A stretch of DNA of 64,000 nt from an uncultured bacterium (GCA_937863685.1 CALMGM010000005.1:1012217-1076216); one strand, 5' to 3'; positions 7,545 to 52,848 are shown, counted from the stretch's first letter. The notes: generated by a model from the letters alone, not told the origin. Numbers and translations are program-made.

Positions 7545-7586
7545 ACTCCTTACGAAACAGTCCAGAATAAAAACTCATGATATGAG

Positions 7587-15051: not shown

Positions 15052-15138
15052 TGGTGCCGGTGGAGGGAATCGAACCCCCATGGTATTGCTACCGGTGGAT
15101 TTTGAGTCCACTGCGTCTACCAGTTTCACCACACCGGC
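15052..15138 (-). tRNA. tRNA-Leu (anticodon CAA), class II with long variable arm, CCA encoded
   Basis: The reverse complement reads GCCGGTG-TGGTGAAACTGGTAGACGC-AGTGGACTCAAAATCCACC-GGTAGCAATACCATG-GGGGTTCGATTCCCTC-CACCGGC-ACCA. It has a 7-bp acceptor stem, a CT-CAA-AA anticodon loop and a TPsiC GGTTCGATTCC. Confidence 0.9.
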
Positions 15139-15295: not shown

Positions 15296-16426
15296 ATGAA
15301 TAGCGTTTATATTCACATTCCGTTCTGCCTGGCCAAATGCGGATACTGCGGGTTCAACTCCCGACCGCTGGCATCCGATAATGAGGCCGGAGTTTATTGC
15401 TCGGCTCTGATGAAAGAGATTGCCAATTGTAAAATGAAAAATGACAATTTGGAGACAGTCTATTTTGGTGGGGGAACGCCCAGCCTGCTTTCGGCCAGAC
15501 AGCTCAAGGACATCCTGGTCAGGGTCAAGGATAATATCGGACCGGTCGGCGATGACTGCGAGACGACCATCGAGGCCAACCCCGGGACGGTGGATATCTA
15601 TAAACTATCCGATCTGCGCGAGGCCGGATTCAATCGCTTAAGCCTGGGAGTGCAGTCCTTCGATCCGGATCTTCTAAAACTGATGGGCCGCCGCCATACC
15701 GCCGGGCAGGCCCTGGCCGCCTTTAGCGATGCCCGGCAGGCGGGCTTCAGAAATATCAGCCTGGACCTGATCTTTGCTTTGCCGGGCCAATCTTTGGAGA
15801 GCTGGCAAACAAACCTGACCAAGGCCTTGGAACTGGGGCCTGAACACATCTCGCTTTATTCGCTGACTTACGAGCCGGAGACCGAGTTCACCCGCCAGAA
15901 GGAGCAGGGCCGTCTCACTCCGGCCTCCGAGGAACTGGAGGAGGAGATGTACCTGGCGGCCATCGAGACCATGGGCTCCGCCGGATATGCCCATTACGAG
16001 GTGTCCAACTTTGCCAGAAAGAATTTCCGGTCCCGGCATAATCTCAATTACTGGCAGGGCGGGGATTATCTGGGGTTCGGGGCCGGGGCCCATTCGCACC
16101 TGGACGGCAAACGCTGGTCCAACTTCAAGGATCCCGATAAATATATCGTTGCGCTGGAAAAAGGCGAAAGCCCGGTCGAGATGGAGGAGACCCTTACCCG
16201 AGATCAGCGAATATTCGAAGCCATATTTCTGGGGTTAAGGATGGTCGAGGGGATAGCTGTCGGGGAATTTGAGAAGAAGTGGGGGCTGGCGCCGACTAAA
16301 TATATGCCCAAGGTGTGGCGCAAGCTGGAGGAAAATTATTATCTGGAGAAGGAGGGGGGACGGGTGAGGCTGAACATCGAAGGGCTGCTGCTGTCGGATA
16401 CTATCCTGGCGGACTTCGCCCCGTAG
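15296..16426 (+). CDS. hemW: Radical SAM heme chaperone HemW (HemN-like, oxygen-independent coproporphyrinogen oxidase family)
   Basis: YIHIPFCLAKCGYCGF (CxxxCxxC), YFGGGTPS and the HemN C-terminal domain. Length of 376 aa is typical of HemW. Confidence 0.85.
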   Translation: MNSVYIHIPFCLAKCGYCGFNSRPLASDNEAGVYCSALMKEIANCKMKNDNLETVYFGGGTPSLLSARQLKDILVRVKDNIGPVGDDCETTIEANPGTVDIYKLSDLREAGFNRLSLGVQSFDPDLLKLMGRRHTAGQALAAFSDARQAGFRNISLDLIFALPGQSLESWQTNLTKALELGPEHISLYSLTYEPETEFTRQKEQGRLTPASEELEEEMYLAAIETMGSAGYAHYEVSNFARKNFRSRHNLNYWQGGDYLGFGAGAHSHLDGKRWSNFKDPDKYIVALEKGESPVEMEETLTRDQRIFEAIFLGLRMVEGIAVGEFEKKWGLAPTKYMPKVWRKLEENYYLEKEGGRVRLNIEGLLLSDTILADFAP

Positions 16427-25952: not shown

Positions 25953-26642
25953 CTATTTGGGTCCGTATTTCATTTTGTCCTTCTGGGTGGCATAAATAAC
26001 GCCGTGAAAATATTGGTGAACCAACAGATCTACGTATCTTTGATAAAAGAGATCGTCGAATTCAATATGTTTCAGTTCCTTTTTATCTCCTTCGACACAA
26101 GCTTCGGCTGTCTTTTTATTTTTTTCCAATTCATAACGATATTGAAAGTGGTTCTTGATCATGCCCCCCAGAAAACCGTTGTAGATACTGGCATGGACGG
26201 GATCCTTCAGTTCAACCCCCATTTGGAGGAACAACTCAAGCATCAGGTCACTGTACATTTTACTCCACTTTTCCTTGAGTCCTTTAAGTTCAGGGATATC
26301 CAGAACCGCGGAATTAAAAAAGATCAGGGCTTCGGTGGTATTCTCCCGGAAGAATTGCACCACATTGGCCACCAGATTGCGCACCCGCTCCTCGGGTGGG
26401 GTGCTGTTGTCGCCGGCCGAGGCCTGGGCGTGGTAATACTTGCCAAAGGCATCCTCCAGGATATCCTTTAAGATCCCGGATTTGCCACCGAAGTAATAGT
26501 TGATCATGGCAATGTTCACCCCGGCCTCCTTGGCTATCTCGCGGACCCCTATGGCAGAATATCCTTTATTTACGAACAGGGCGGCTGCGGCTTCAAAGAT
26601 GCGCCTCTTGGGATCGATCTGCCCGTTATTTTTGGTGGCCAT
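25953..26642 (-). CDS. TetR/AcrR family transcriptional regulator
   Basis: N-terminal HTH RIFEAAAALFVNKGYSAIGVREIAKEAGVNIAMINYYFGGK. Confidence 0.85.
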   Translation of the reverse strand: MATKNNGQIDPKRRIFEAAAALFVNKGYSAIGVREIAKEAGVNIAMINYYFGGKSGILKDILEDAFGKYYHAQASAGDNSTPPEERVRNLVANVVQFFRENTTEALIFFNSAVLDIPELKGLKEKWSKMYSDLMLELFLQMGVELKDPVHASIYNGFLGGMIKNHFQYRYELEKNKKTAEACVEGDKKELKHIEFDDLFYQRYVDLLVHQYFHGVIYATQKDKMKYGPK

Positions 26643-26661
26643 GATGTCTCCTTTAATTAAT

Positions 26662-26671
26662 CAAACGTTTG
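26662..26671. promoter_or_regulatory. Palindrome CAAACGTTTG (candidate TetR operator 1, overlapping the predicted transcription start)
   Basis: It lies immediately downstream of the -10 box of the tetR promoter candidate and 20 nt upstream of the tetR ATG. Confidence 0.55.
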
Positions 26672-26672
26672 T

Positions 26673-26776: not shown

Positions 26777-26804
26777 AAAAAACCGCCCCAAAAAGGCGGT
26801 TTTT
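26777..26804 (-). terminator. Rho-independent terminator closing the redox gene run
   Basis: aaaaaccgcc-ccaaaaa-ggcggttttt. On the minus strand the stem is followed by a T-run, 15 nt after the peroxiredoxin stop. Confidence 0.75.
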
Positions 26805-26818
26805 GAAATAGTTGTTTT

Positions 26819-27277
26819 CTAATTCGATAAAAATTTGATAATCTCTTTAATATCGGGCAGCTCCTTTAGGGGATAAACCTTTATCCAGATCACCTTGCCA
26901 AACTCATCGATGATGATATTGGCCCGCTCGGAGAAGCCTTCCTTTTCCCGGAAGATTCCACAGGTTTTGGCTGCCTTGCCATGAGGCCAGAAATCGGACA
27001 GCATCCTTAGATTTTTAACTTTCAGGGACCTGGCCCAGGCATGCTTGGCTGGCACAGTGTCTACACTCATTCCGATCGGCACCGTATTGAGTAGGTCAAA
27101 GGTCTTAAAATTCTTTTCCAGCGACTGCATCTGCCTGGCGCAGACCTTGGTCCAGGCCAGGGGATGGAAGGAGAGCAGCACCTTGCGTCCCTTGAAAGCG
27201 CTCAGCTTAAATTCGGCATTATGCTGGTCCTTCAAAATAATTTCCGGGGCCCTTTGGCCGATCTTGATGGCGGACAT
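26819..27277 (-). CDS. Peroxiredoxin (AhpC/TSA, Bcp-like, 1-Cys/atypical 2-Cys)
   Basis: KVLLSFHPLAWTKVCARQM contains the TxxC peroxidatic motif. The protein is 152 aa. Confidence 0.85.
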   Translation of the reverse strand: MSAIKIGQRAPEIILKDQHNAEFKLSAFKGRKVLLSFHPLAWTKVCARQMQSLEKNFKTFDLLNTVPIGMSVDTVPAKHAWARSLKVKNLRMLSDFWPHGKAAKTCGIFREKEGFSERANIIIDEFGKVIWIKVYPLKELPDIKEIIKFLSN

Positions 27278-27301
27278 GATAAACCCTCCCTTAATATGTG
27301 A

Positions 27302-27331
27302 CCCTGGATTCCGGATCAGGTCCGGAATGAC
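27302..27331 (-). repeat. Hairpin repeat of the gtcattcc...ggaatccaggg family
   Basis: The minus strand reads gtcattccggacctgatccggaatccaggg, against gtcattcccgacctgatcgggaatccaggg at 16626-16655. The two differences are the two partners of one stem base pair. Confidence 0.6.
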
Positions 27332-27343
27332 CCTTTGATTGTT

Positions 27344-27478
27344 CTACTGCAGGCCGATGCAGGAATAGCAGATGGCCACGGCGTTGATGTACAGGGGTTT
27401 CAGTTCTTTCCGAAATATTCCCGCCGCTATGGCGGCCAGGGAAAGAACCATGATAATTATTCCGATGGTCTTTTTCAT
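27344..27478 (-). CDS. 44-aa single-TM CxxC micro-protein (resembles the CD1871A-family CXXC motif proteins as I recall them)
   Basis: Hand translation gives MKKTIGIIIMVLSLAAIAAGIFRKELKPLYINAVAICYSCIGLQ*. The ATG lies 2 nt after the stop of the upstream thioredoxin-fold gene. The ORF is below the ORF-track size cutoff. Confidence 0.55.
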   Translation of the reverse strand: MKKTIGIIIMVLSLAAIAAGIFRKELKPLYINAVAICYSCIGLQ

Positions 27479-27480
27479 GG

Positions 27481-27999
27481 CTATTTTCCGGAAAGGTAAT
27501 CGTCCAGCTTTTTGGTCTTATAGGCCTGGGTGGACACATAGGACAGGATCTTCAAATACACCGGGGCCTCGATATATCCCGGCAGAATGCCGATCACCTT
27601 GCCTTCGCTGTCCATGAACAGGGTGGAGGGGAATCCGCTGACCTTCATGCCCATGGTGAATTCAGACTGGGCCATAACCTTTCCCAGGTAGGTGATCTTT
27701 TCCGAGCTCTCGCCGTTTATTTTAGCAATGACGAAATTCTCCTTCAGGGCCGCTGCCACCGAAGAATCGGCATAGGTTTTATCGTCCATCACCTTGCACC
27801 ATTTGCACCAGTCGGTATAGAAATCAACCACCACGTATTTTTGGTCGGCGGCGGCCTTTTCCATGGCCTGGTCGAAGGCCAGCCACTCGGCTTTGGACGA
27901 AACAGTTTTGGTATCCTTTTCGGCCTTCTTGTTGCCGGCACATGACACTCCGGTGGTCAGCGATAAGGCCAGGATCAGCAGGGGGAGGTATTTCTTCAT
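27481..27999 (-). CDS. Exported thioredoxin-fold lipoprotein (thioredoxin_7/DUF255-like)
   Basis: Lipobox LSLTTGVSC and the thioredoxin motif VVVDFYTDWCKWCKVMD. Confidence 0.8.
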   Translation of the reverse strand: MKKYLPLLILALSLTTGVSCAGNKKAEKDTKTVSSKAEWLAFDQAMEKAAADQKYVVVDFYTDWCKWCKVMDDKTYADSSVAAALKENFVIAKINGESSEKITYLGKVMAQSEFTMGMKVSGFPSTLFMDSEGKVIGILPGYIEAPVYLKILSYVSTQAYKTKKLDDYLSGK

Positions 28000-28028
28000 T
28001 GATGGCTCCTATGGTTTTTCTATTTGGG

Positions 28029-28205
28029 TTACTTGTTGAGACCGGACATCAGCAGTCCGCCGATGACAGCCCAAACTATAGTGCTGGCCCAAGGATTGGA
28101 TGCTATGGGGCAGGTGCCAGTCCGGCAGCCGATGAATTTGTAATAAAGAAAACCAATAGCGCCTCCGCCAGCCACTCCTAAAATTATCTTGAGAATCGGA
28201 TGCAT
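28029..28205 (-). CDS. 58-aa two-TM CxxGxC micro-protein (DUF6132-like by recollection)
   Basis: Hand translation gives MHPILKIILGVAGGGAIGFLYYKFIGCRTGTCPIASNPWASTIVWAVIGGLLMSGLNK*. Its ATG shares 1 nt with the OsmC stop (TGATG at 28203-28207). The ORF is below the ORF-track cutoff. Confidence 0.55.
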   Translation of the reverse strand: MHPILKIILGVAGGGAIGFLYYKFIGCRTGTCPIASNPWASTIVWAVIGGLLMSGLNK

Positions 28206-28609
28206 CAGCTTATCACCCGGCTTTCAATCTTCATATTTGTCCCATTCTGAATGGTGGCTGAGACCGAACAGTACTTTTCCTTCGACAACTTGATAGACTC
28301 ATCCAATGCTTCAGGCGGAACATTGCCATTGGCCTCAAAAATAAAGCTCATCTCGGTGTATCTTTTAGGATGTTCCTCGGCCCGGGTTCCGTCCATAAAC
28401 ACCCGGAAGCCGGTCAAATCAACTCGTTTCTTTTTCAGTATCGAGACCACATCCATGGCCATGCATCCGGCCTGGGCGATAAGCAGCAACTGCATGGGGG
28501 TGAAGCCCGACGGGGTTCCGTCTTTTTTAGATTCTACCACTATGCCGTGCCCGTTGTCGTCGCTGGCAGCGAACTGCAAGTCCTTGACCCAGTCCAATGT
28601 AATATTCAT
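28205..28609 (-). CDS. OsmC family peroxiredoxin-like protein
   Basis: 134 aa, with the two conserved Cys contexts LLIAQAGCMAMDV and EKYCSVSATI. Confidence 0.85.
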   Translation of the reverse strand: MNITLDWVKDLQFAASDDNGHGIVVESKKDGTPSGFTPMQLLLIAQAGCMAMDVVSILKKKRVDLTGFRVFMDGTRAEEHPKRYTEMSFIFEANGNVPPEALDESIKLSKEKYCSVSATIQNGTNMKIESRVIS

Positions 28610-28629
28610 TTTTCTATCGCAAAGTTAGA

Positions 28630-29205
28630 TTAATAATTCTCGGCCATCACTTCGTAATAGCTCTGGGGATGGGCGCAGGCCGGGCAGGCTTGGGGCGCTT
28701 CGGGGCCCTCATAAACATAGCCGCAGTTACGGCAGCGCCATTTGACAGGCTTGTCTTTTTTGAACACCCGCTTCTTCTCGATGTTGGCCAGAAGTTTCAG
28801 GTAACGAGCCTCGTGTTCCCGCTCTACTTCGGCGATGAACAGAAATATCTTGGCGATCTCCGAAAAACCCTCTTCATCGGCAATGGCGGCGAACTCCGGA
28901 TACAGCTTGGTGTGCTCCTCATTCTCACCCTCGGCGGACGCTTTCAGATTCTCGGCAGTGGTGCCGATCTTTCCGGCCGGATACATGGCGGTGATCTCAA
29001 CTCCGCCGCCTTCCAGGAATTTGAAGAACCGCTTGGCGTGTTCCTTTTCGTTTTCGGCTGTTTCGGTAAAAAACCAGGAGATCTGTTCATAGCCTTCCTT
29101 CTTGGCCGCCGAGGCAAAGTAGGTGTAGCGGTTGCGGGCCTGGGATTCCCCGGCAAAGGATTTGAGCAGGTTCTTTTCGGTGCGGGTTCCTTTTAAGCTT
29201 TTCAT
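28630..29205 (-). CDS. rbr: Rubrerythrin
   Basis: Diiron ExxH motifs (ENEKEHAKRF, EVEREHEARY) and a C-terminal rubredoxin-like CRNCGY...CPACAHP. Confidence 0.9.
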   Translation of the reverse strand: MKSLKGTRTEKNLLKSFAGESQARNRYTYFASAAKKEGYEQISWFFTETAENEKEHAKRFFKFLEGGGVEITAMYPAGKIGTTAENLKASAEGENEEHTKLYPEFAAIADEEGFSEIAKIFLFIAEVEREHEARYLKLLANIEKKRVFKKDKPVKWRCRNCGYVYEGPEAPQACPACAHPQSYYEVMAENY

Positions 29206-29241
29206 GTCATTTATCCTCTTTTTAGTATATATATATTTTCT

Positions 29242-29336
29242 GTCATCCTCAGCCTGACTTTTTATCTTGCTTGCGAAGGATCTGTCCTTGGTTGAGATTC
29301 TTCGAGGGCCAGACGAGTTACTGTTCTCAGAATGAC
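29242..29336. repeat. Two inverted copies of the gtcatYc.Sag...cgaagRatc repeat in the dfx-rbr spacer
   Basis: The plus-strand copy is gtcatcctcagc...gcgaaggatctg (29242-29284). The minus-strand copy is gtcattctgagaac...ctcgaagaatctc (29336-29294). Confidence 0.55.
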
Positions 29337-29346
29337 GACATTAAGG

Positions 29347-29727
29347 TTACGACTTAGCAGACCACAGGCCGTGCAGATTGCAGAATTCTTTGGCTGTCAC
29401 TTCCTTGGCCTGGCATAAAAATTCCGCTTCCGGGGCGTCGCCGGGCTTCAGGTATTTGCGATAGACCCGGCCGTCGGCATAAAGGGCTATCCATTCGATA
29501 TAATGCTTCTCCTCCATGGGATGGGCCGCCGAGCCGATCTTGACCTTGTATCCGTTGGCGGTCTTCTCGATCACCGGCACATGCTTTTCCTTGGCGGCGT
29601 CGACCGTGTTCTCGGCATAGAGCTTCATGGGCTTGCCGCAGCAGACCAGCTCGCCTTTGCCGCCGTGCAGCACCTCCACGATATTGCCGCAGATCTCGCA
29701 CTTGTAAATCTGGTTCCTTTCGGCCAT
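29347..29727 (-). CDS. dfx: Desulfoferrodoxin (2Fe superoxide reductase)
   Basis: N-terminal desulforedoxin motif [12 protein letters not shown]...CCG, HVPVIE, and the centre II ligand region HPMEE.HYIEWI...CNLHGLW. Confidence 0.9.
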
Positions 29728-29765
29728 GATGGTTCTCCTTGTTTTATGAATTTATCCGAATAATA

Positions 29766-30698
29766 TCAGGCATTGAGTTCCAGATACTGCTGGGCGGCGA
29801 TGGCCGCGGTGGCGGCGTCGCCCACCGCGCCGGAGATCTGCCGGACCAGCTTTTGGCGGACATCTCCGCAGGCGTAAATGCCCTGGAGCGAAGTGGCCAT
29901 TTTATCATCGGTGATGATATATCCTTGCTGGTCGGTATTGACGATACCCTTCACCAGTTCGCTGTTCGGCTGGTAACCCACGTAGATGAATGCGCCCGAA
30001 GCGGGTATCACTTCCTCTTTAAGCGTTTGCTTGTCCATCACCCGGACTCCGCTTACCCGGCTGGATCCTTCTATGGACAGAATGTCCTTGCTCCAGGCGA
30101 AAGCTATCTTTTTATTGGCAAAGGCGATTTTCTGGATGGAGTCGGCCGCCCTTAAGGCATTGCGGCGGTGAATCACCGTCACTTTTGAGACCAGGCCTGC
30201 CAGGTATATCGCCTCTTGCACGGCGGAGTCGCCCCCGCCCAAGACAGCTACCGGCTGGTTTTTAAAAAAGGCTCCGTCGCAGACTGCGCAGTAGGAAACG
30301 CCCTTGCCTAAAAGTTCCTTTTCGCCCGATACCCCCAATGTTTTTGGGAAGGCCCCGGTGGCGACTATCAGAGCCCGGGATTTCACGGTGCTTCCGTCTG
30401 AAAGTTTAACTAACTGATATTTTCCCTCAGAGATTATGTTTTCGGCTTGGGCGGAAATTATTTCTGCCCCGAATTTTCTGGTCTGCTGTTCCATCTTCTG
30501 GGCCAGTTCATAACCGGATATGCCTTCGGGAAAGCCGGGGTAGTTGTCTATTCTTTCGGTGTTGGCCACCAAGCCTCCGGGCATCATTTTTTCGATGATG
30601 GCCGCCTTAAGGCCGCCCCGACCGGCGTACAATCCGGCGGTCAGTCCGGCGGGACCGGCTCCCAGGATGGTTATATCGTAATTTCTGGTCTCGCTCAT
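29766..30698 (-). CDS. trxB: Thioredoxin-disulfide reductase
   Basis: GAGPAG FAD motif, redox CAVCDG, NADPH motifs GGGDSA and HRRNALRA, and the C-terminal GDV...RQ.. FAD motif. Confidence 0.9.
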   Translation of the reverse strand: MSETRNYDITILGAGPAGLTAGLYAGRGGLKAAIIEKMMPGGLVANTERIDNYPGFPEGISGYELAQKMEQQTRKFGAEIISAQAENIISEGKYQLVKLSDGSTVKSRALIVATGAFPKTLGVSGEKELLGKGVSYCAVCDGAFFKNQPVAVLGGGDSAVQEAIYLAGLVSKVTVIHRRNALRAADSIQKIAFANKKIAFAWSKDILSIEGSSRVSGVRVMDKQTLKEEVIPASGAFIYVGYQPNSELVKGIVNTDQQGYIITDDKMATSLQGIYACGDVRQKLVRQISGAVGDAATAAIAAQQYLELNA

Positions 30699-30907
30699 TT
30701 ATTTGCCGTCATTTTGTTTGATGTCACCGGTTCCGAGACCTGCTGGAACACCCGGCAGCTTAAAACACAGCGTCCGCAGTTGGTACATTTTTCCTGGTCA
30801 ATGTAAGGAGCTTTGAAGCCGTCCTGCTTGATGGCGCCTACCGGGCAAACTGCCAGCGAAGGGCAGTGGTGGTTTTGGGGGCAGTATTTAGTCTTGACTT
30901 CTATCAT
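30695..30907 (-). CDS. Small 4Fe-4S ferredoxin-domain protein
   Basis: A canonical CTNCGRCVLSC motif plus an atypical first Cys set, CPQNHHCPSLAVCP. It has 4-nt overlaps with both neighbours (30904-30907 and 30695-30698). Confidence 0.7.
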   Translation of the reverse strand: MIEVKTKYCPQNHHCPSLAVCPVGAIKQDGFKAPYIDQEKCTNCGRCVLSCRVFQQVSEPVTSNKMTANK

Positions 30908-31548
30908 TCGGCAGCCTTAAGTATGTGATTGATGAAAACCGGCTCGGGTTGGGCTCCCTCGAACTGGATGGTTTCGTTGATGATCACCTTGGGAACGCCC
31001 ATTACCCCGTATTTCTGGACCAAGTGCGGGAACTCCGCCGATTCCACCATGTGGGCGGTTACCATATCGCTCTCGATGGCGGCCTGATGGGCCATCCTGA
31101 CCGCAGCCGGACAGTAGGGGCAGGTGGGAGTGATGAACACCTGTATCTTGACAGGCTTGGCTATCTTCTTCAATTTTTCCCGGGAGTCGAGGGTCAGTCC
31201 GGTGGTGCCCCGGGAGACGTCAATGATATCTTCGATCAATGATGTGAACTCAAAACCGGAGGGGACGCCGAAGAACCGTACTCCGTAATCCCTGTCGCCT
31301 ATCAGGGCGATGCCCGGTATCTTGTCGATCCCGTACTGGTCGACCAGGGATTTATCCTCCAAAAGATCGTGTTTTTCCAGGATAAGCTTGTCCGAAAGGG
31401 AGGCGATCTCGGTCAAGATCTCCTCGGTGGGTTGGCAGTACATGCACTCCAGCTTTTGGGTGAAGAACACGATCTTGACCGGGTTAACCAGTTTCCCGGA
31501 GAATTCACGGCGCAGATGATTCTGATCCTCTTCCCTCAACATTCCCAT
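30904..31548 (-). CDS. Glutaredoxin-like protein disulfide oxidoreductase (two thioredoxin-fold units)
   Basis: Two CxxC sites, ECMYCQP and TPTCPYCP, are about 110 aa apart. This is the arrangement seen in archaeal/Thermotoga PDO-type partners of thioredoxin reductase. Confidence 0.75.
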   Translation of the reverse strand: MGMLREEDQNHLRREFSGKLVNPVKIVFFTQKLECMYCQPTEEILTEIASLSDKLILEKHDLLEDKSLVDQYGIDKIPGIALIGDRDYGVRFFGVPSGFEFTSLIEDIIDVSRGTTGLTLDSREKLKKIAKPVKIQVFITPTCPYCPAAVRMAHQAAIESDMVTAHMVESAEFPHLVQKYGVMGVPKVIINETIQFEGAQPEPVFINHILKAAE

Positions 31549-31579
31549 GATACAAAACCTCCTTGATTTACCACCATTC

Positions 31580-31714
31580 TCAGCGGCAGTTTCCGGAAAC
31601 GCTGCATTGCGATGCGGTTCCCGTTATTATCCCCCGGACCACCTGGGCCCCAAAGGCCAACAGGGCCAGCAGGGAAAATATTATTATCAGATAGCGGGCA
31701 GGGTTGCGCATCAT
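31580..31714 (-). CDS. Possible 44-aa membrane micro-protein
   Basis: Hand translation gives MMRNPARYLIIIFSLLALLAFGAQVVRGIITGTASQCSVSGNCR*. It has one TM helix and a C-terminal Cx5C and fits the 133-nt hole between fmdB and the PDO gene. There is no family recognition and no clear RBS. Confidence 0.3.
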   Translation of the reverse strand: MMRNPARYLIIIFSLLALLAFGAQVVRGIITGTASQCSVSGNCR

Positions 31715-31721
31715 TTAGAGG

Positions 31722-31952
31722 CTAAAGCCCGCAGGAGCCGGAGGAGCAGCCGCAGTTGCCGGAAGGGCATGATCCTCCTATATCGCTACCGGAGAAAGAA
31801 TCAGGTCCGCTGACGGAAGCGGCAAAGGTGGAAAGCATTTTTTCGGTCGTAGTTCCGCATTTTGAACATTTGGGAGCCGGGGTGGCGAACGAAACAACCA
31901 ATTCCTCAGTCTTTAGCCCGCATTTGGGGCACTGGTATTCGTAGATCGGCAT
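31722..31952 (-). CDS. FmdB-family zinc-ribbon protein with a Cys/Gly/Ser-rich tail
   Basis: MPIYEYQCPKCG...(17 aa)...CSKCG, followed by the C-terminal tail SCPSGNCGCSSGSCGL. Confidence 0.8.
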   Translation of the reverse strand: MPIYEYQCPKCGLKTEELVVSFATPAPKCSKCGTTTEKMLSTFAASVSGPDSFSGSDIGGSCPSGNCGCSSGSCGL

Positions 31953-31957
31953 TTAAA

Positions 31958-32161
31958 TTATTCCTTGGTTTTTTTATTGGTATTTATCCCGAAAAGTTTG
32001 TAAAGCAGACAAAAACCGGTGACGGCGGTTATCAGAGCCACAGCGGCCAGCACCAACAGCACCCATTTTATCGGGCCGGCTGTTAACAGGCCCGCGGCCA
32101 GAAGGGCGATGCCCAATACTGCCCGGATGATCCGGTCAACGGCGCTTTCGTTGGTTTTCAT
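31958..32161 (-). CDS. DUF2892 (YgaP-like transmembrane domain) protein, 67 aa
   Basis: MKTNESAVDRIIRAVLGIALL...VTGFCLLYKLFGINT matches the DUF2892 pattern (N..DR..R...G, then C..Y..FGI.T). It is hidden in the ORF track inside a 187-aa ORF that overlaps trxA out of frame. Confidence 0.7.
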   Translation of the reverse strand: MKTNESAVDRIIRAVLGIALLAAGLLTAGPIKWVLLVLAAVALITAVTGFCLLYKLFGINTNKKTKE

Positions 32162-32172
32162 GGGGGTTCTCC

Positions 32173-32499
32173 TTATTTGTTTATTGCGGCATCCAGCCGG
32201 GCGGCGATGGCCGGTTTGGGCATGGCTCCGATCAGGGTGTCGACAATCTGGCCATTCTTGAAGATCATCATGGTGGGTATGCTGCGAATTCCGAACTGAG
32301 CCGACTTTTGGGGATTGGCATCGACATCCAGCTTGGTCATCTTGATGCGGCCCTGGTAGTCGTTGGACAGCTCTTCTATGATCGGCCCCACCATCCGACA
32401 GGGACCGCACCAGGCCGCCCAAAAATCCACCAGAACCGGTATGTTGGACTTCAAAACCTCCTGATCGAAGCTTCCATCGCTCAAATGTTCTACCGGCAT
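32173..32499 (-). CDS. trxA: Thioredoxin
   Basis: VLVDFWAAWCGPCRM in a 108-aa protein. Confidence 0.9.
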   Translation of the reverse strand: MPVEHLSDGSFDQEVLKSNIPVLVDFWAAWCGPCRMVGPIIEELSNDYQGRIKMTKLDVDANPQKSAQFGIRSIPTMMIFKNGQIVDTLIGAMPKPAIAARLDAAINK

Positions 32500-32539
32500 G
32501 TTTTCTCCTTTGTATTATCAAAAATTTGTCTTACATTAA

Positions 32540-32569
32540 TTTAGATGCAGCAACTCGAAAAAGGATTCA
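32540..32569 (-). promoter_or_regulatory. ECF-type promoter candidate upstream of trxA
   Basis: The minus strand reads TGAATCC-N14-GCATCTAAA. Both boxes and the spacing are identical to the site at 33419-33448. It lies between the anti-sigma stop (32574) and the trxA start (32499). Confidence 0.6.
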
Positions 32570-32573
32570 TTTT

Positions 32574-32843
32574 TTAAGTCCGGTTTTTGCTTCTGGCCAA
32601 TTTGATGGTGGCGAACAGACGTTTTTCAGCGCCCTCCGGGAGCGGCTCCTGTTCCAGAGAACGGTACAAAGTGACGGTCATTTTCAGGGTGTCAAAATAC
32701 ATCTTGCAGTCTGGGCACTCGGCCAGGTGAACTTCCAGGCGCTGGCACAATTGCTTCTTCAAACGATTATCCAGATAATCGGAAAATGCCGATGTCATCC
32801 TTTTGCAATGGTGGTCGATATTCTTATTCATAATTTTGGACAT
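32574..32843 (-). CDS. Soluble zinc-binding anti-sigma factor (ZAS, zf-HC2; RsrA-like)
   Basis: The HxxxCxxC motif VHLAECPDC is present, with an additional upstream Cys (HHCKRM). The 89-aa protein has no hydrophobic segment. It lies 1 nt downstream of the ECF sigma gene. Confidence 0.75.
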   Translation of the reverse strand: MSKIMNKNIDHHCKRMTSAFSDYLDNRLKKQLCQRLEVHLAECPDCKMYFDTLKMTVTLYRSLEQEPLPEGAEKRLFATIKLARSKNRT

Positions 32844-32844
32844 G

Positions 32845-33402
32845 TCAATTTTCCTTCAAATAAACCGAAAGATTCTTTCTTAAGAATTCCCTTGAGCGGT
32901 GAAGCTTGGATTTCATGGCCGGCAGAGAAAGTCCCAGTATTTTTGCCACCTGGGCGCCATCCAGACCCTCAATGTCCCTTAAAACTATCACTGCCCGATC
33001 CTTGTCTGGAAGCTTCTGAAGATGCTGGTCCAGCAAGGCTCTAAATTCGCTGTTCAGGAGCGATTCCAGTGGGGTGACAGCGGTGTCCGGCAACTCTTCA
33101 ACCGCGCTAAGGGACAGGTGGGTGGAATCGTGCCCGCGGCGTTTGCTGCGGCGCAGCTTCATCAAGCTGAAATTGGTGGCCATCCTGAACAAATAGGTGG
33201 AAAGTTTGGATCCGCCCCGGAAATGATGCAGGTTTTTATAAAGGGCGATAAAAGTCTCTTGCAGGACATCCTCTGCCTCGCTGACAGTGCCCAACAATCT
33301 TAAGGCCACCGAATATACCCGAGATTGGTGGATCTTTACCAGCTGATTGAAAGAACGGTAATTGCCGGCCTGCGCCTGTTGCAGTAAAACGTCTTCGTTC
33401 AT
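32845..33402 (-). CDS. ECF-family RNA polymerase sigma factor
   Basis: Region 2 (F..LV..H...VY..A.R.LG....AEDVLQETFI.LY) and region 4 (R.V..L.DIEGL....A.ILG.S....KS.L.R.R..L) in a 185-aa protein. Confidence 0.9.
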   Translation of the reverse strand: MNEDVLLQQAQAGNYRSFNQLVKIHQSRVYSVALRLLGTVSEAEDVLQETFIALYKNLHHFRGGSKLSTYLFRMATNFSLMKLRRSKRRGHDSTHLSLSAVEELPDTAVTPLESLLNSEFRALLDQHLQKLPDKDRAVIVLRDIEGLDGAQVAKILGLSLPAMKSKLHRSREFLRKNLSVYLKEN

Positions 33403-33418
33403 TTGCTGCTTCTTTTAG

Positions 33419-33448
33419 TTTAGATGCCGAATATAATTACAGGATTCA
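33419..33448 (-). promoter_or_regulatory. ECF-type promoter candidate upstream of the sigma gene (autoregulation)
   Basis: The minus strand reads TGAATCC-N14-GCATCTAAA. Its downstream end is 17 nt from the sigma ATG at 33402. Confidence 0.6.
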
Positions 33449-33467: not shown

Positions 33468-33496
33468 TTGACAGGATAAAATAGTGGAGTTATTAT
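33468..33496 (+). promoter_or_regulatory. Sigma70-type promoter candidate
   Basis: TTGACA (33468-33473), a 17-nt spacer, then TATTAT (33491-33496). It would give a leader of about 180 nt before the ORF at 33685. Confidence 0.5.
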
Positions 33497-33684
33497 AAAT
33501 ATAACGATTTGCAGTATAGTAACAACTTCATACAATGGCTTATAAAGCAATCCAGATTGCTTTTTAATAGTAATTCAAAGATCGGTAAATGTCAATAGCA
33601 GGTTGATCGAATTATGGCACTGTGAAATGGTTCCCTTAAAGCGGGAAAGATTATGTCGGAACAGCAACTTCTTTAAAAGGAGAG

Positions 33685-33996
33685 ATGCCTATGTTTACCG
33701 GAAAAGAAGATCATAAGGTAAGCTTTAAGAAAGCGCGGGTTCTGGTCAGGGCCTATCAAAGAAACAAGGCTAAAAAAGAAGTGACGGCGCTTTATTACAG
33801 CAAAGATGCCATCGGTAAAATATTGAGGCAAAAGGGCTGCATCGGGCTGCGCATATATTATGCGAAAAAAACCACCGGGGCCAATACTCTGGTCATAACC
33901 GGGGTGGATGAAAAAGGCAATGATATCATCACCGGTTATATAGCCGATATTGGCTTTCCCTGCCCGCCGTTCTGTCCCCCGGATAAAAATCTGTAA
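33685..33996 (+). CDS. Hypothetical 103-aa protein ending in CPPFCPP
   Basis: aaaggagag RBS at 33676-33684, immediately upstream of the start codon. No recognised family. Two Cys lie in the C-terminal GFPCPPFCPPDKNL. Confidence 0.5.
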   Translation: MPMFTGKEDHKVSFKKARVLVRAYQRNKAKKEVTALYYSKDAIGKILRQKGCIGLRIYYAKKTTGANTLVITGVDEKGNDIITGYIADIGFPCPPFCPPDKNL

Positions 33997-34013
33997 CCAG
34001 TAGTATATTTGTC

Positions 34014-34703
34014 ATGACCAGAATAGATTACATATTGGGCGGCCTTTATTACCTATCCTTGTTATTTCCTGTAATTACAGGAGTTGTTTATATAAGGTAC
34101 CAAAGGAACGAGGTTCGGTTGTTTTTTATACTGATCATTACGGCCTTTCTGGCTGAAACGCTCGCCCTTATCATGGGCCTGTATAAAATCAACAACCATT
34201 TGATCTATCAAATATTCATTTTGGTGGAATTTTTGATATATATATTTGTTTTACGCAAATGGATCGGAAATAAAATAATCAAATTGGCGGTCTTTCCCGT
34301 TATGATTCTTTTCGTCATATTTTGGTCATACGCAAACATCGCAATGAGGGAAACCCAAAGCTTCAGCCACTATCCGCTGGTAATGGAAAGCATAATCCTT
34401 TTATTGTTTGGCGTTTATATTTATTTACATCGCATAACCAAGAATAGAGGGAATATTCCACATGACTATAGATTATGGATTTTATTGGCTCTATTGTTTA
34501 ATTTTGGGGGCAATATATTCATATATTCCGGAATGAAGTTTATAATAAACCAAGCTCTTTTTTTGTGGCGGCTTCATTGGGTAAACAATACCCTGGTAAA
34601 CATCCTGTATGCCATAAGTTTCAGCAGCCTGGCTTGGAAGGATGCTGATGGCGTTAATGATTTTAGGGCATCACAAGAAACGGTATGGGATACGGCCGAT
34701 TGA
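34014..34703 (+). CDS. AT-rich polytopic (about 7 TM) membrane protein, hypothetical
   Basis: Seven hydrophobic stretches are visible. There is no soluble domain. It ends 19 nt before the ATG of the PAS-GGDEF-HD-GYP gene. Confidence 0.55.
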   Translation: MTRIDYILGGLYYLSLLFPVITGVVYIRYQRNEVRLFFILIITAFLAETLALIMGLYKINNHLIYQIFILVEFLIYIFVLRKWIGNKIIKLAVFPVMILFVIFWSYANIAMRETQSFSHYPLVMESIILLLFGVYIYLHRITKNRGNIPHDYRLWILLALLFNFGGNIFIYSGMKFIINQALFLWRLHWVNNTLVNILYAISFSSLAWKDADGVNDFRASQETVWDTAD

Positions 34704-34722
34704 ACAATTATTTGATATTAAC

Positions 34723-36756
34723 ATGAACAATGGAAATTTATATTGGTTGATTTTGACCGGAAGCGGAACGGTGCTGCTCTTGCTGGGGGCAGCAGCAGGA
34801 GCTATTTTCCTCAGCAACAAAAAAATCGTCAACCTTTCGGCCGAACATCAAGAACAATTGGTAAAAAGCGAGGCCCGTTTCCAGCGGCTGATAGAGAACA
34901 GTCCGGTACCCATTGCCGTGACAAACCTGCAGGGGTTTTTGTACGCCAATCCGGCCTTTGCTAAAATGTTGGGTGTGGGAAATCCGGATCAACTGCTGGG
35001 GCGGAGCATAAACGACTTCATGCACCCGGATTACCGGCAGATAGAATTGAACCGGATCGAAAGAGTGGTCAACAACAGGATAAATGCCGGTCTTCTGGAG
35101 CAGAAGATAATCCGAAGCGACGGGGTGGAATTGGAGGTCAAAGCCATGGGGTCCCCGGTCATCTTTGCCGGCCAGCTGGCAGCCCAGATCACCTTTCAGG
35201 ATATCACCGCCAGCAAGCATATCCAGCATCTCCTGGAAAAAAGCCAGCGGAATATGGAAACCGAGATCAGGGAAGGGACCCGGGAGTTGTTTATATCCAA
35301 CCAGAATTTAAAGCACGAGATCAGCCAAAGGGTGCTGATCGAGGAGATTCTCAGCACCAGCGAGAAACATTTCCGTTCGTTGATAGAGAACAGCCTGGAT
35401 CTTATTGCCATAGTGAACAGGGAGGGCCGCCTGTCCTATGTCAATCCCATGGCAAAAATAATGTTGGGTTACGATGGGAAAGAGGTCATCGGTGCAGAGG
35501 TATATGATTATATCTCTTCCGATGATATGCCGGAAGTGAAGAGGATCTTCGGGGAAGTTGCCACCAGGGTGGGGGAAGTGCGGTGTGCAGATTTCAGGAT
35601 AAGGCATAAGAACGGCAGCTATTTGACCATCGAGGCCCTGGCCAGGAACATGCTTGATCTTCCGGCGGTCAACGGCATCATGATCACCGTCAAGGACGTG
35701 ACGGAGAAGCGAAAGGCCCAGAAGCAGATAGAGTACTTAAGTTTTTACGACCGGCTGACCGGGCTCCACAACCGGGCATTTTTCGAAGAGGAGATACTGA
35801 GAATAGATTCCAACCGCCACCTGCCGATCACGCTTTTCATCGCCGATATCAACGGCCTCAAACTGGTCAACGATGCTTTCGGACATTCCGAGGGGGATGA
35901 ACTGCTTAACCGGATGGCCCAGATATTAAAAATGTGCTGCCGGCGTGAGGATATCATCGCCCGGTGGGGCGGCGACGAGTTCGCCCTGCTGTTATTGAAC
36001 ACTCCGGGCTACAAAGCCGACGAGCTTTGCCGGAGGATCAGCCAGCTGTGTCGGGACAAATGCAAAGGCCCAATCCCTTTAAGTCTGGCCATGGGTCATG
36101 CCACCAAGAAAAAAATGGAGCACAATATCAGGGATGTACTCAGGGAAGCCGAGGAGAGCATGTACCGCAGCAAGATGATGGTCAGCAAAAAGGTCCGGAC
36201 CGAGATCATAGCCCAGCTGCTAGATACCTATTATCAAAAAGGCTACCGGACCAGGGAGCAGGTCAAGCTGTTGCAGGGCTTGGCCGGGCATATGGCATCA
36301 GCCCGGGGGCTGACCCCGCCCGAAATCTTAAAATTACATCAGGTGGTGGAATATTGCGATATCGGCAATATAGCCCTTGAGCAAAATCTGTTTAAAAAAA
36401 AGGACCGGCTGACCTCCGAAGAATGGAAGATGATCCATCGCCATCCGGAGATAGGATACCACATCGTCCAAAACACTCCGGAGACCGCCGAGATGGCCGA
36501 ACCCATCCTGGCCCATCACGAATGGTGGGACGGCAGCGGCTATCCCCGAAACCTCACGGGCGAGGATATCCCGCTGTATGCCCGGATAATTTCCATAATC
36601 AACGCATACGATGCCCTGACCCAGAAAAGGCCATACCGCAAAACGCTCAGACCGGAACAGGCCGTCAAGGAGATCAAAAGATGCGCCGGCACCCAGTTCG
36701 ATCCATTCCTGGTTGAGGTTTTGGAGGAGGTGATGGCCCAGCAGGAGCTGTTATAG
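34723..36756 (+). CDS. Membrane-anchored PAS-PAS-GGDEF-HD-GYP protein (c-di-GMP synthesis/hydrolysis)
   Basis: N-terminal TM (LYWLILTGSGTVLLLLGAAAGAIFL), two PAS-like blocks (FQRLIENSPVPIAV..., FRSLIENSLDLIAI...), GGDEF (RWGGDEFALLL) and HD-GYP (HHEWWDGSGYPRNL). I chose the start at 34723 rather than 34642. Confidence 0.85.
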   Translation: MNNGNLYWLILTGSGTVLLLLGAAAGAIFLSNKKIVNLSAEHQEQLVKSEARFQRLIENSPVPIAVTNLQGFLYANPAFAKMLGVGNPDQLLGRSINDFMHPDYRQIELNRIERVVNNRINAGLLEQKIIRSDGVELEVKAMGSPVIFAGQLAAQITFQDITASKHIQHLLEKSQRNMETEIREGTRELFISNQNLKHEISQRVLIEEILSTSEKHFRSLIENSLDLIAIVNREGRLSYVNPMAKIMLGYDGKEVIGAEVYDYISSDDMPEVKRIFGEVATRVGEVRCADFRIRHKNGSYLTIEALARNMLDLPAVNGIMITVKDVTEKRKAQKQIEYLSFYDRLTGLHNRAFFEEEILRIDSNRHLPITLFIADINGLKLVNDAFGHSEGDELLNRMAQILKMCCRREDIIARWGGDEFALLLLNTPGYKADELCRRISQLCRDKCKGPIPLSLAMGHATKKKMEHNIRDVLREAEESMYRSKMMVSKKVRTEIIAQLLDTYYQKGYRTREQVKLLQGLAGHMASARGLTPPEILKLHQVVEYCDIGNIALEQNLFKKKDRLTSEEWKMIHRHPEIGYHIVQNTPETAEMAEPILAHHEWWDGSGYPRNLTGEDIPLYARIISIINAYDALTQKRPYRKTLRPEQAVKEIKRCAGTQFDPFLVEVLEEVMAQQELL

Positions 36757-44056: not shown

Positions 44057-45238
44057 ATGCCTCCCACCAAACGCGACTATTACGAAATACTGGGCATTCC
44101 CAAGAGCGCCGACGAAAGCCAGATAAAATCGGCCTATCGCTCATTGGCCAAGAAGCACCATCCCGACATGAACCGGGAAAGCCCCAAGGAGGCCGAGGAG
44201 AAGTTCAAGGAGCTGTCCGAGGCCTACGAGGTGCTGATGGACAAGAAGAAACGGGCCAACTACGACCAGTTCGGCCATGCCGGGGTGGATCCCAGCTTCG
44301 GGGCCGGTGGCTTCGACTTCCGGCGCGACTTCACCCACAGCGAGGATATTCAGGACATCTTCGGCTCAATGTTCGGCGGGGGCGGGGGCGGGTCTATTTT
44401 CGACATGCTGTTCGGCGGCGGGATGGGCGGGGCAACCCGCACCCGGGGCGGACGGCAGGTGCGGCGGGGAGGCGATCTCAACGTTCACTTGGCCCTGACC
44501 TTGGAGGAGATCGCCACCGGGGTGGAGAAGACCCTTCAGCTGAAAAGATTCGAGAGCTGCTCCGAGTGCCACGGCGAGGGAGCCAAGTCCGGGGCCGACA
44601 TCAAGGAATGCCCCACCTGCAAGGGAGCTGGCGAGGTGCGGCAGGTGTCGCGCTCCATGTTCGGGCAGTTCATCAACGTGGGAGCCTGCCCGCAGTGCGG
44701 CGGGGAGGGCAAGATCATCAGCAATCCCTGTCCCTCCTGCAAGGGCGAGGGCCGGGTCAAGAAAGAGGCCACCATCAAGGTCAAGGTTCCGGCCGGGGTG
44801 GCCAACGGCAACTACATCCCCCTGCGCAGCCAGGGAAACATCGGCCCCAAGCTGGGTCCGGCCGGCGATATTCTGGTCTACATCGAAGAGAAGGAGCATC
44901 CGCTGTTCCACCGCCACGGCGACGATCTGGTGCTGGCCCTGCCCATCTCCTATTCCCAGGCCGCGCTGGGGGCCAAGGTGACGGTGCCAATGCTGTCCGG
45001 CAAGGCCGAACTATCCGTTCCCTCGGGCACCAGATCCGGCAAGATATTCCGGATGCGGGGCAAGGGCCTGCCGCGATTGAACTCCAGCGGCAGCGGCGAC
45101 CAGTTGATCCGGGTGGAGATATACATTCCGAATAAATTAAACGCCGAAGAAAAGAAAATATTGAAACAGCTGGGGGAGATTCAGAACGGCAAGGTGCCCA
45201 GCCCTCATAAACTGGATTTAGAGAACGAGAATCAGTAG
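44057..45238 (+). CDS. dnaJ: Co-chaperone DnaJ
   Basis: J-domain DYYEILG...HHPD, a G/F-rich linker and four CxxCxGxG zinc motifs ([32 protein letters not shown]). Confidence 0.95.
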
Positions 45239-45273
45239 GCAGGTTGGTAAAAACGAAAACGAAAAGGTAATGG

Positions 45274-52098: not shown

Positions 52099-52129
52099 AT
52101 AACAATAACTGTTTTAAAAAGAGAAAATT

Positions 52130-52834: not shown

Positions 52835-52848
52835 TAGTTGATGAACCA

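Follow-up and report, generated by a model that had tools for sequence, protein, structure and literature searches.

Does a run of sixteen minus-strand genes, which joins a sigma factor and its anti-sigma factor to thiol reductases, oxygen-defence enzymes and very small proteins, act as one regulatory unit, and what would switch it on? The run lies in a 64,000-nt stretch, taken as one strand, from an uncultured bacterium (GCA_937863685.1 CALMGM010000005.1:1012217-1076216); the whole stretch is referred to as the window. In the six-frame list of open reading frames (ORFs) all 16 were on the minus strand, from 33402 down to 26819. Their order was extracytoplasmic function (ECF) sigma factor, zinc-binding anti-sigma factor (ZAS), thioredoxin (TrxA), DUF2892 protein, FmdB zinc ribbon, a 44-amino-acid (aa) transmembrane (TM) ORF, protein disulfide oxidoreductase (PDO), ferredoxin, thioredoxin reductase (TrxB) and desulfoferrodoxin (Dfx), followed by rubrerythrin (Rbr), OsmC, DUF6132 protein, an exported thioredoxin-fold lipoprotein, a CD1871A-like peptide and peroxiredoxin (Prx). 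We consider it probable that the 16 genes are a single sigma-dependent operon and the core of an oxidative and thiol-stress regulon, governed by an autoregulated thiol switch analogous to SigR-RsrA. The sigmaR-RsrA pair of Streptomyces is a thiol-switch ZAS system that controls trxBA.

The junctions within the run were close. A single nucleotide (position 32844) separated the sigma and anti-sigma genes. ATGA-type overlaps of 4 nt joined the PDO gene to the ferredoxin gene (30904-30907) and the ferredoxin gene to trxB (30695-30698), and the OsmC and DUF6132 genes overlapped by 1 nt at 28205. Three gaps were longer, with 74 nt (32500-32573), 141 nt (29206-29346) and 66 nt (27278-27343); the remaining gaps were 2-38 nt. 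The run ended at the following element.

26778-26804, minus strand: intrinsic terminator closing the operon, a 12-bp stem and then a T run

This was the sole strong terminator on the minus strand of the window, and an equivalent hairpin lay 3' of prx in four related loci (L001, L002, L004 and L005). An initial annotation of this DNA had described the co-directional run with its junctions, overlaps and gaps, and a strong terminator at its end; all of these were reproduced. Its family labels were checked with profile hidden Markov models. Pfam and NCBIfam assignments held for 14 of the 16 genes, the exceptions being both 44-aa ORFs, one without a family and one below cutoff. Most of the families named earlier thus stood, but the CD1871A label fell below its cutoff and the lipoprotein was DsbH-like only at the Pfam level.

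The run was headed by the two putative regulators.

32845-33402, minus strand: ECF (group 4) sigma factor, 185 aa, matching Sigma70_r2, r4_2 and TIGR02937
32574-32843, minus strand: soluble ZAS anti-sigma factor, 89 aa, with C13, C33, H39, C43 and C46; zf-HC2 at 35 bits (cutoff 22.2)

The sigma factor contained only regions sigma-2 and sigma-4 (Sigma70_r2, 65.9 bits; r4_2, 51.4 bits; TIGR02937, 106.5 bits, cutoff 42.9), as expected of ECF group 4, whose members measure ~180-200 aa. ECF factors typically also have a cognate anti-sigma gene in the same transcript and a self-regulating promoter with AAC-type -35 and CGT-type -10 elements; here the anti-sigma gene followed after 1 nt and the motif upstream of the sigma gene was kept in relatives. 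The anti-sigma factor carried H-x3-C-x2-C in an anti-sigma domain, with a fourth ligand upstream, as in ZAS proteins. It had no hydrophobic segment (maximum 15-residue hydropathy, KD15, 0.33), and was in this respect soluble like RsrA. The soluble ZAS protein of the initial annotation was therefore confirmed.

Three promoter sites were assigned to the head of the run.

33419-33448, minus strand: putative ECF-type promoter P2, TGAATCC-N15-GCATCTAA, upstream of the sigma gene (motif and footprint)
32540-32569, minus strand: putative ECF-type promoter P3, an exact copy of the P2 motif, upstream of trxA in the 74-nt gap
33567-33595, minus strand: candidate housekeeping-type promoter P1, TTGACA-17-TACTAT, upstream of the sigma gene (consensus match only)

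Both ECF-type sites were identified by motif and phylogenetic footprint. The 30-nt motif TGAATCCT-N13-GCATCTAAA occurred exactly twice in the 64 kb, at 33419-33448 and 32540-32569, and these remained the only copies when up to three mismatches were allowed (0.2 expected by chance). Read as TGAATC-N16-CATC, the motif had the usual ECF architecture. The copy in the 74-nt gap had been seen in the initial annotation, and it now gained a second copy before the sigma gene and conservation in relatives.

The footprint motif AA[ATC]C[CT]-N14-17-CATC[TCA]A was sought in the 125 nt preceding the sigma gene; its background frequency was 0.005 per 131 nt. It was found at 20 of 82 unique loci, and at 9 of the 11 loci with at least 49% sigma identity. 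Between the ZAS gene and the effector genes it was found at 27 of 109 loci, including distant Chloroflexota-type PDO-OsmC loci, where it took the form GAAACCTTT-N12-TTTGCATCTA. In the 20-kb loci with the full operon, the motif was confined to those one or two positions.

L004 and L005 had a ZAS-trxA gap of 16 nt without the second motif, so that transcription of the island must there start at the sigma promoter. In L004, L005, L091 and L092, TTGACT-17-TACCAT was conserved ~25 nt ahead of the ECF -35 element. This gave a tandem housekeeping/ECF arrangement resembling sigRp1 and sigRp2.

The predicted -10 element of the sigma promoter was only 4-7 nt from the ATG, with no Shine-Dalgarno sequence, in L001 (9968-10003), L002 (9973-10003), L004 (9970-10003) and L005 (3540-3574), and the sequence suggests that the sigma mRNA is leaderless in these four loci. 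In the window the sigma gene had a 19-nt spacer from the -10 element and no clear Shine-Dalgarno sequence, and the downstream genes had strong ones.

If the genes form a unit, are they kept together in relatives? A metagenome scan with a seven-sequence anti-sigma alignment and a genome scan together yielded 82 loci in which the sequence continued for at least 1.5 kb past the ZAS gene. Sigma orthologues were found at 50-85% identity. With taxonomy taken from cluster member names, the closest named one belonged to Candidatus Edwardsbacteria GWF2_54_11 and a 50% relative to candidate division Zixibacteria; the host is an Edwardsbacteria-like bacterium. In a scan of species genomes with the sigma alignment, no close orthologue was among the matches listed, which held at least 600 generic ECF peptide rows at 40% identity or less.

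Four or more distinct genomic contexts contained the island, on Edwardsbacteria and Zixibacteria-type metagenome contigs whose sigma identity was 50-85%. L001 and L087-L089 had the same gene order and the same flanks as the window. The flanks were different in L002 (sigma 57% identical; without PDO), L004 (55%) and L005 (50%; without the YgaP-like DUF2892 gene). The gene arrangement is not due to chance, because the whole order was kept in relatives with unrelated flanking genes. The initial annotation had staked its proposal on synteny, and the order kept in L002, L004 and L005 bore it out; together with the promoter motif, this conserved synteny supported its view of a single unit headed by an ECF sigma factor and a soluble ZAS.

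Beyond these loci the association thinned out. The 44% relative, L006, had only sigma, ZAS, TrxB and ferredoxins, with a thioredoxin gene upstream. All 9 loci at 49% sigma identity or above had adjoining thiol or reactive oxygen species (ROS) genes, as did 14 of 16 at 40-49% and 24 of 57 below 40%. The recurrent partners outside the close clade were PDO and then OsmC, which is the reason for regarding the island as an enlarged version of a sigma-ZAS-PDO-OsmC kernel. Among the loci compared, this kernel is widespread: it was present in Chloroflexota, Acidobacteriota and other groups, and its two-promoter layout was the same there. The ancestral unit would then have been sigma-ZAS-PDO-OsmC, to which the Edwardsbacteria/Zixibacteria lineage would have added Trx, Dfx, Rbr, Prx and the micro-proteins.

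In Chloroflexota/Anaerolineae-type loci a small zinc-ribbon gene, whose protein ended in LNLVCxxCGYxxGGCFT, lay between the ZAS gene and PDO (L021 2073-2324, L024 10829-11023, L035 6121-6333). It occupied the position that TrxA, the YgaP-like gene and FmdB have in the window.

The enzymes and electron carriers encoded in the run were as follows.

32173-32499, minus strand: thioredoxin TrxA with WCGPC (TIGR01068, 127.5 bits, cutoff 96.8)
30904-31548, minus strand: PDO with two CxxC motifs (TIGR02187, 280.9 bits, cutoff 185)
30695-30907, minus strand: ferredoxin, 70 aa, with seven conserved Cys (Fer4 families, LdpA_Fe-S-bd)
29766-30698, minus strand: low-Mr thioredoxin reductase TrxB with CAVC, GGGDSA and HRRxxxR (TIGR01292, 360.2 bits, cutoff 343.45)
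29347-29727, minus strand: desulfoferrodoxin, a 2Fe superoxide reductase (TIGR00320, 214.1 bits, cutoff 146.9)
28630-29205, minus strand: rubrerythrin (NF045767, 310.7 bits, cutoff 200)
28205-28609, minus strand: OsmC-family thiol peroxidase-like protein (PF02566, 73.5 bits)
27481-27999, minus strand: exported DsbH/DsbD-gamma-like thioredoxin-fold lipoprotein with WCKWC (Thioredox_DsbH, 55.8 bits)
26819-27277, minus strand: AhpE-like peroxiredoxin (AhpC-TSA, 95.2 bits)

TrxA, PDO, TrxB, desulfoferrodoxin and rubrerythrin exceeded their equivalog cutoffs. The structures nearest to PDO were those of Pyrococcus PDO (1J08, 1A8L), and the one nearest to the peroxiredoxin was M. tuberculosis AhpE. 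The lipoprotein had an N-terminal hydrophobic segment ending in GVSC; it scored 61.2 bits against the DsbH equivalog NF043050, whose cutoff is 190, and is DsbH-like only.

PDO and TrxB matched different halves of the AhpF-homologue model TIGR03143, and this suggests a split AhpF-like electron path, which would lead to the AhpE-like peroxiredoxin and OsmC. The ferredoxin gene between them overlapped both neighbours by 4 nt, had a conserved Cys pattern and was translationally coupled between PDO and TrxB throughout the relatives. A ferredoxin-dependent thioredoxin reductase was rejected as the primary reading of TrxB, which kept the NADPH motifs GGGDSA and HRRxxxR and whose matches in the PDB were canonical NADPH thioredoxin reductases. 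The ferredoxin may be an alternative electron donor, possibly to Dfx and Rbr, since the unit contained no rubredoxin.

The next question is whether the anti-sigma factor could sense the thiol state of the cell. C13, C33, H39, C43 and C46 were invariant across its six closest orthologues. They aligned with C11, C31, H37, C41 and C44 of RsrA, and this register was confirmed by a HMMER alignment to the PDB entry of RsrA (5frf). Among 13 more diverse anti-sigma factors, H39, C43 and C46 were invariant, C13 was missing only in L022 and C33 was replaced in two distant members. The N-terminal zinc ligand was thus a Cys (CHCC ligand set), with C13 matching RsrA C11 and the same C-to-H spacing of 26. 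The trigger disulfide of RsrA requires a Cys as N-terminal zinc ligand (PMC4960319). Such a CHCC set is necessary but not sufficient for redox sensing, RsiW also being CHCC.

The RsrA/RshA equivalog TIGR03988 was the top NCBIfam model for the anti-sigma factor, with an alignment covering positions 2-75 of 77. The genes at hand also resembled an RsrA-type regulon: trxA was directly 3' of the second promoter motif, and trxB was within the same gene run.

A single-sequence phmmer (HMMER) search of 1.84 billion representative proteins returned 1261 relatives of the anti-sigma factor at E <=1e-3. Because 137 of the 150 best were only 69-132 aa long, the protein belongs to a large family of stand-alone soluble ZAS proteins.

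Several observations count against one thiol-switched operon. The first group concerns kinship with SigR-RsrA. The nearest solved relative of the sigma factor was SigW (5wuq, 103 bits), followed by AlgU/RpoE (~73-84) and M. tuberculosis SigH (59.6), and the SigH_actino model gave 72 bits against a cutoff of 251. This placed the sigma factor outside the SigR/SigH clade (ECF12). In the PDB the anti-sigma family profile matched RsiW (33.5 bits, 3e-7) above RsrA (25.3 bits, 1e-4), and TIGR03988 reached 31.8 bits where 62.5 are required.

The second group concerns the tuning of the switch. The sensitivity of RsrA is tuned by the flanking residues E39, E40, L45 and E46, that is, acidic residues before C41 and L then E/R after C44 (PMC3177212). 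The motif region of our anti-sigma factor read H-L-A-E-C-P-D-C-K-M. Of the tuning residues it retained only the acidic one preceding the first Cys; after the second Cys the family had K/R and a hydrophobic residue (CxxCR, RsiW-like), not L and E/R. RsiW is reported to be insensitive to thiol oxidants, including diamide (PMC3177212).

Further points of this kind come from the enzymes and the gaps. Neither a rubredoxin nor any other established electron donor to Dfx and Rbr was encoded in the cluster. Internal promoters or processing sites could be concealed in the larger gaps and the hairpins of the operon, and in L001 a terminator-like hairpin with a U tract stood ahead of prx.

In a different reading of the pair, it controls the operon but the zinc of the anti-sigma factor is structural, as reported for RsiW and ChrR, and the sigma factor is released by another cue, such as regulated proteolysis, binding of a metal or electrophile, or a partner protein. 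The proximity of both partners to SigW/RsiW, the RsiW-like CxxCR context, the redox determinants of Jung 2011 being only partly present and the sub-cutoff RsrA model all fit such a mechanism. It is harder to reconcile with an 89-aa soluble protein that has no TM segment or sensor domain for protease or ligand input, with the thiol and ROS enzyme genes that adjoin across many lineages, and with an N-terminal Cys ligand and a fifth Cys (C33) that were invariant in the six closest orthologues, one or the other being replaced in a few distant relatives. We judge a structural zinc unlikely, while giving it more weight than any other alternative considered here.

A thiol switch is accordingly what we infer, as a well-motivated inference and not more, because the redox-tuning residues of RsrA were only partly present. 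The sigma/ZAS pair is analogous to SigR-RsrA, not orthologous with it, and by descent belongs with SigW-like ECF factors. The analogy drawn in the initial annotation therefore held for autoregulation, for a soluble CHCC-type ZAS, for trxA and trxB in the regulon and for tandem promoters in relatives; it did not extend to orthology, SigW/RsiW being nearer.

The gaps within the run bear on whether it is one transcription unit or several, with the sigma factor driving itself and perhaps trxA, and dfx, rbr and prx answering to, for example, a PerR/Fur-type repressor or the adjacent TetR. Three elements in the gaps were relevant.

29242-29336, no strand assigned: hairpin-forming element of ~95 nt, resembling a miniature inverted-repeat transposable element (MITE) or repetitive extragenic palindrome (REP), with termini GTCATTCTGAG...CTGAGGATGAC, in the 141-nt dfx-rbr gap
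27308-27328, minus strand: intercistronic 8-bp hairpin ATTCCGGA-N5-TCCGGAAT, without a U tract, in the 66-nt gap
32517-32529, minus strand: ACAAATTTTTGAT, similar to the palindrome at the promoter of the TetR gene itself (weak evidence)

The longer gaps before rbr (141 nt) and prx (66 nt) recurred at these junctions in relatives, as several units would predict, and the hairpin ahead of prx in L001 could end one of them. The long gaps nevertheless held different hairpin or MITE-like insertions in each lineage and no shared regulatory motif. Elements related to that of the 141-nt gap were found in the dfx-rbr and CD1871A-prx gaps of L002 (13501-13655, ~15780-15926) and in the trxB-dfx gap of L005 (7078-7320). 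Their termini across lineages were GTCATYCTGAG...CTCAGGATGAC, with one copy only in the 64-kb window. Their distribution over different gaps of this one operon marks them as independent insertions; they do not represent a regulatory site that has been conserved.

The 141-nt gap was accordingly rejected as a promoter or regulatory repeat array, related elements occupying different gaps in different lineages. The initial annotation had called this gap repeat-filled, and the repeat proved to be one inverted-repeat MITE/REP-like hairpin with no regulatory array; the hairpin repeat it had placed in the 66-nt gap was recovered as the 8-bp hairpin. No gap hairpin element in the window was followed by a U tract, and the window had no strong internal terminator.

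Relatives carried other hairpins that were absent from the window. A GC-rich hairpin, GGACACGG-N4-CCGTGTCC, stood directly 3' of trxB, and further ones were GGGCAATTCATGAATTGCCCC and a GAAxCCxGGAA...TTCCxGGxTTCC family before rbr or osmC. The positions were L001 13637-13660, L002 13065-13088 and L004 13960-13985, and L002 ~13680 and L004 ~13935. These recurrent GC-rich hairpins may be RNA-stability or processing elements.

A role of TetR was suggested by the operator-like site beside the trxA promoter. ACAAA-NN-TTTGAT had two copies only in the 64 kb (26660-26672 and 32517-32529, minus strand; 0.02 expected). The first was the palindromic CAAACGTTTG, just downstream of a perfect sigma-70 promoter of the TetR gene (25953-26642), and was conserved in L001. 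The second lay between the ECF -10 element and the ribosome-binding site of trxA, and was not conserved at trxA in L001. TetR was rejected as a member of the unit, being found only in the closest clade; on the strength of these two sites it may be a second control layer in this strain. No PerR or Fur gene was present in the flanks of the operon in the window, and the gene order was kept at 50% sigma identity with unrelated flanks. Several transcription units are on this evidence improbable, and we return to the single operon.

The five micro-proteins encoded in the operon were the following.

31958-32161, minus strand: YgaP-like two-TM micro-protein (DUF2892), 67 aa, with a conserved Cys in TGFC (PF11127, 75.4 bits)
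31722-31952, minus strand: FmdB-type zinc ribbon, 76 aa, with a Cys-rich C-terminal tail (TIGR02605, 49 bits)
31580-31714, minus strand: 44-aa single-TM micro-protein with C-terminal CSVSxxC (ORF)
28029-28205, minus strand: DUF6132 two-TM micro-protein with a GCRTGTCP loop, its start overlapping the OsmC stop (PF19628, 25.2 bits, cutoff 23.2)
27344-27478, minus strand: CD1871A-like 44-aa membrane peptide ending in AICYSCIGLQ (NF040920, 26.4 bits, below the cutoff of 32)

Are such short ORFs genes at all? In all five, and in the ferredoxin gene, substitutions relative to orthologues were biased to the third codon position, and all five kept invariant Cys motifs. The ORF encoding CSVSxxC had no Pfam or NCBIfam match; it was conserved in L001, L002 and L087-L089, and differed from L001 by 10/3/18 substitutions at codon positions 1/2/3. 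For DUF6132 the corresponding changes against an orthologue were 9/2/33; its gene overlapped the OsmC stop in all five loci and its GCRxGxCP motif was invariant. The FmdB ribbon was conserved in L001, L002, L004 and L005, with CxxC...CxxC and the Cys-rich tail.

The CD1871A-like peptide aligned over its full length to NF040920 (1-37 of 38) and its C-terminal CxxC was invariant (AICYSCIGL). Its gene abutted or overlapped the lipoprotein gene, and was coupled or overlapping in L002 and L004. By these codon patterns the micro-ORFs are genuine genes under purifying selection, which agrees with the micro-proteins of the initial annotation.

A 187-aa ORF with a TTG start (31958-32521, minus strand), in another frame over trxA, was discarded as an artefact; only its last 67 codons, the YgaP-like gene, are real. 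In L004 (11688-11999) a 103-aa soluble Cys-rich ORF (CW...C...CCW...C...C..C), with no Pfam match on record, replaced the 44-aa TM ORF.

What these proteins do is the more speculative part of the picture. Homologue searches with DUF6132 and the CD1871A-like peptide returned only close relatives, and a search of the literature found nothing relevant on the micro-protein families. Simple hydropathy and charge analysis put the motif of DUF6132 in a loop, probably on the cytoplasmic side, and the CSVSxxC of the 44-aa peptide outside the membrane.

A further proposal, which we consider unlikely, is that the five micro-proteins and the DsbH-like lipoprotein make up a membrane thiol/electron relay of a new type, which would replace DsbD/CcdA and carry the reducing power of TrxB/TrxA/PDO to the envelope during oxygen exposure. 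The circumstantial points were Cys motifs predicted on both membrane faces, the translational coupling of DUF6132 to OsmC and of the CD1871A-like peptide to the lipoprotein, and a unit without a CcdA or DsbD gene. The envelope-spanning thiol relay suggested in the initial annotation found no support beyond co-occurrence, translational coupling and predicted topology, and stays a speculation.

The Cys-rich small proteins also raise the question of the cue. Reactive sulfur, metal or electrophile stress, and not oxygen, could be the main one, with the micro-proteins and zinc ribbons as buffers or carriers. Many of the small proteins did have Cys motifs, DUF2892 is by its family name the membrane domain of the rhodanese YgaP, and the widespread kernel consists just of PDO and OsmC. 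Desulfoferrodoxin and rubrerythrin, which are dedicated superoxide and peroxide enzymes, were nevertheless present in every full-length island, and the cluster had no rhodanese, persulfide dioxygenase or metal efflux gene. We regard such a cue as very improbable.

With oxygen as the predicted cue and a thiol switch as the sensor, the operon could work as follows. In reduced cells the 89-aa anti-sigma factor would hold zinc via C13, H39, C43 and C46 and sequester the ECF sigma factor. Peroxide derived from O2, or disulfide stress, would oxidise its thiols, and zinc would be lost. A disulfide involving the N-terminal Cys would then collapse the sigma-binding surface, as in RsrA. The free sigma factor would direct RNA polymerase to the TGAATCC-N15-GCATCTAA promoters of its own gene, giving positive feedback, and of trxA, and transcription would run through 14 tightly packed genes to the single terminator.

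In the thiol branch, electrons would pass from NADPH to TrxB and on to TrxA and PDO, effectively a split AhpF and possibly ferredoxin-fed, to supply the AhpE-like peroxiredoxin and OsmC. In the ROS branch, desulfoferrodoxin would turn superoxide into peroxide and rubrerythrin would reduce peroxide. At the envelope, protection would reach the membrane and periplasm through the exported thioredoxin-fold lipoprotein and the five Cys-motif micro-proteins. Finally, as in SigR-RsrA, the induced thioredoxin system would re-reduce the anti-sigma factor and shut off the response.

The genes around the operon were unrelated to it; they encoded TetR, DUF5916 and lactate permease proteins and, divergently, a PAS-GGDEF-HD-GYP protein. 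On the plus strand, a near-consensus sigma-70 promoter (33468-33496), conserved in the close clade, faced the divergent genes (33685-36756). These comprised two ORFs without a family, one of 103 aa and one for a membrane protein of 229 aa, and the PAS-GGDEF-HD-GYP gene; they were syntenic in L001 and not in distant relatives. Elsewhere in the window, the GC content dipped to 0.35-0.44 (vs ~0.55) at 45001-47000, 52001-53000 and 7001-9000, segments that may have been horizontally acquired. The sole Rfam match at the gathering threshold was one tRNA gene (15055-15138, minus strand).

The locus offers a testable model for the oxygen and thiol stress response of uncultured, probably anaerobic Edwardsbacteria and Zixibacteria, and the model specifies the regulator, both promoter sites and the 14 output genes. 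A widespread counterpart to the ZAS thiol switch of Actinobacteria is also suggested, one that uses another, SigW-like ECF lineage. DUF2892, DUF6132, the CD1871A-like peptide and the unnamed 44-aa peptide are placed in a defined stress regulon, which gives a start for assigning their functions. The sigma factor, anti-sigma factor and promoters make up a compact set that lends itself to heterologous testing and reuse.

How does the island compare with known systems? The literature searched contained no description of an ECF-controlled dfx/rbr operon, nor of stress regulation in Zixibacteria or Edwardsbacteria. With SigR-RsrA of Streptomyces coelicolor and SigH-RshA of mycobacteria (ECF12) it shares a soluble anti-sigma factor consisting of the anti-sigma domain only, CHCC ligands with the identical spacing C-26-H-3-C-2-C and an extra Cys at the position of RsrA C31. 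The sigma gene is autoregulated, as is predicted here, and relatives of the island have tandem housekeeping and ECF promoters like sigRp1/sigRp2. Both regulons include trxA and trxB, which allows a reductive shut-off loop.

In contrast to these systems, the sigma factor here is not ECF12-like (103 bits with SigW vs 59.6 with M. tuberculosis SigH) and the RsrA equivalog stays below its cutoff. The consensus promoter of SigR is GGAAT-N18-GTT, whereas that of the island is TGAATCC/GAAAC...GCATCTAA. The hosts belong to uncultured lineages of the FCB group and Chloroflexota that are probably anaerobic, no mycothiol is involved, and the targets, Dfx, Rbr and the micro-proteins among them, are encoded in a single contiguous operon.

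Among solved relatives, SigW-RsiW of Bacillus subtilis (ECF30) is closest in sequence to both partners. RsiW also has the zinc motif HxxxCxxC, and the promoter architecture is similar to that of the island, the SigW consensus having a TGAAAC-type -35 element and a C(G/A)T-type -10 element at ~16-nt spacing. Unlike our anti-sigma factor, which has no membrane segment, RsiW is anchored in the membrane, and under envelope stress regulated intramembrane proteolysis destroys it; the regulon here consists of redox enzymes.

In Clostridium and Desulfovibrio, dfx, rbr and other such genes are under PerR-type control, PerR being a metal-dependent repressor. Common to both is that anaerobe-type genes for superoxide reductase, rubrerythrin and peroxidase are induced together on exposure to oxygen or peroxide, as is predicted here; the predicted controller of the island is instead an ECF sigma factor with a ZAS, and its transcript also contains the Trx/PDO thiol system. 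The PDO-TrxR systems of Pyrococcus, Sulfolobus and Thermotoga, and AhpF, resemble the island in the suggested path from NAD(P)H via TrxB and PDO to a peroxidase. They differ from it in that the island has split genes, a small ferredoxin translationally coupled between them, and ECF control. Taken together, the island represents a known type of switch in a different form, not a new principle.

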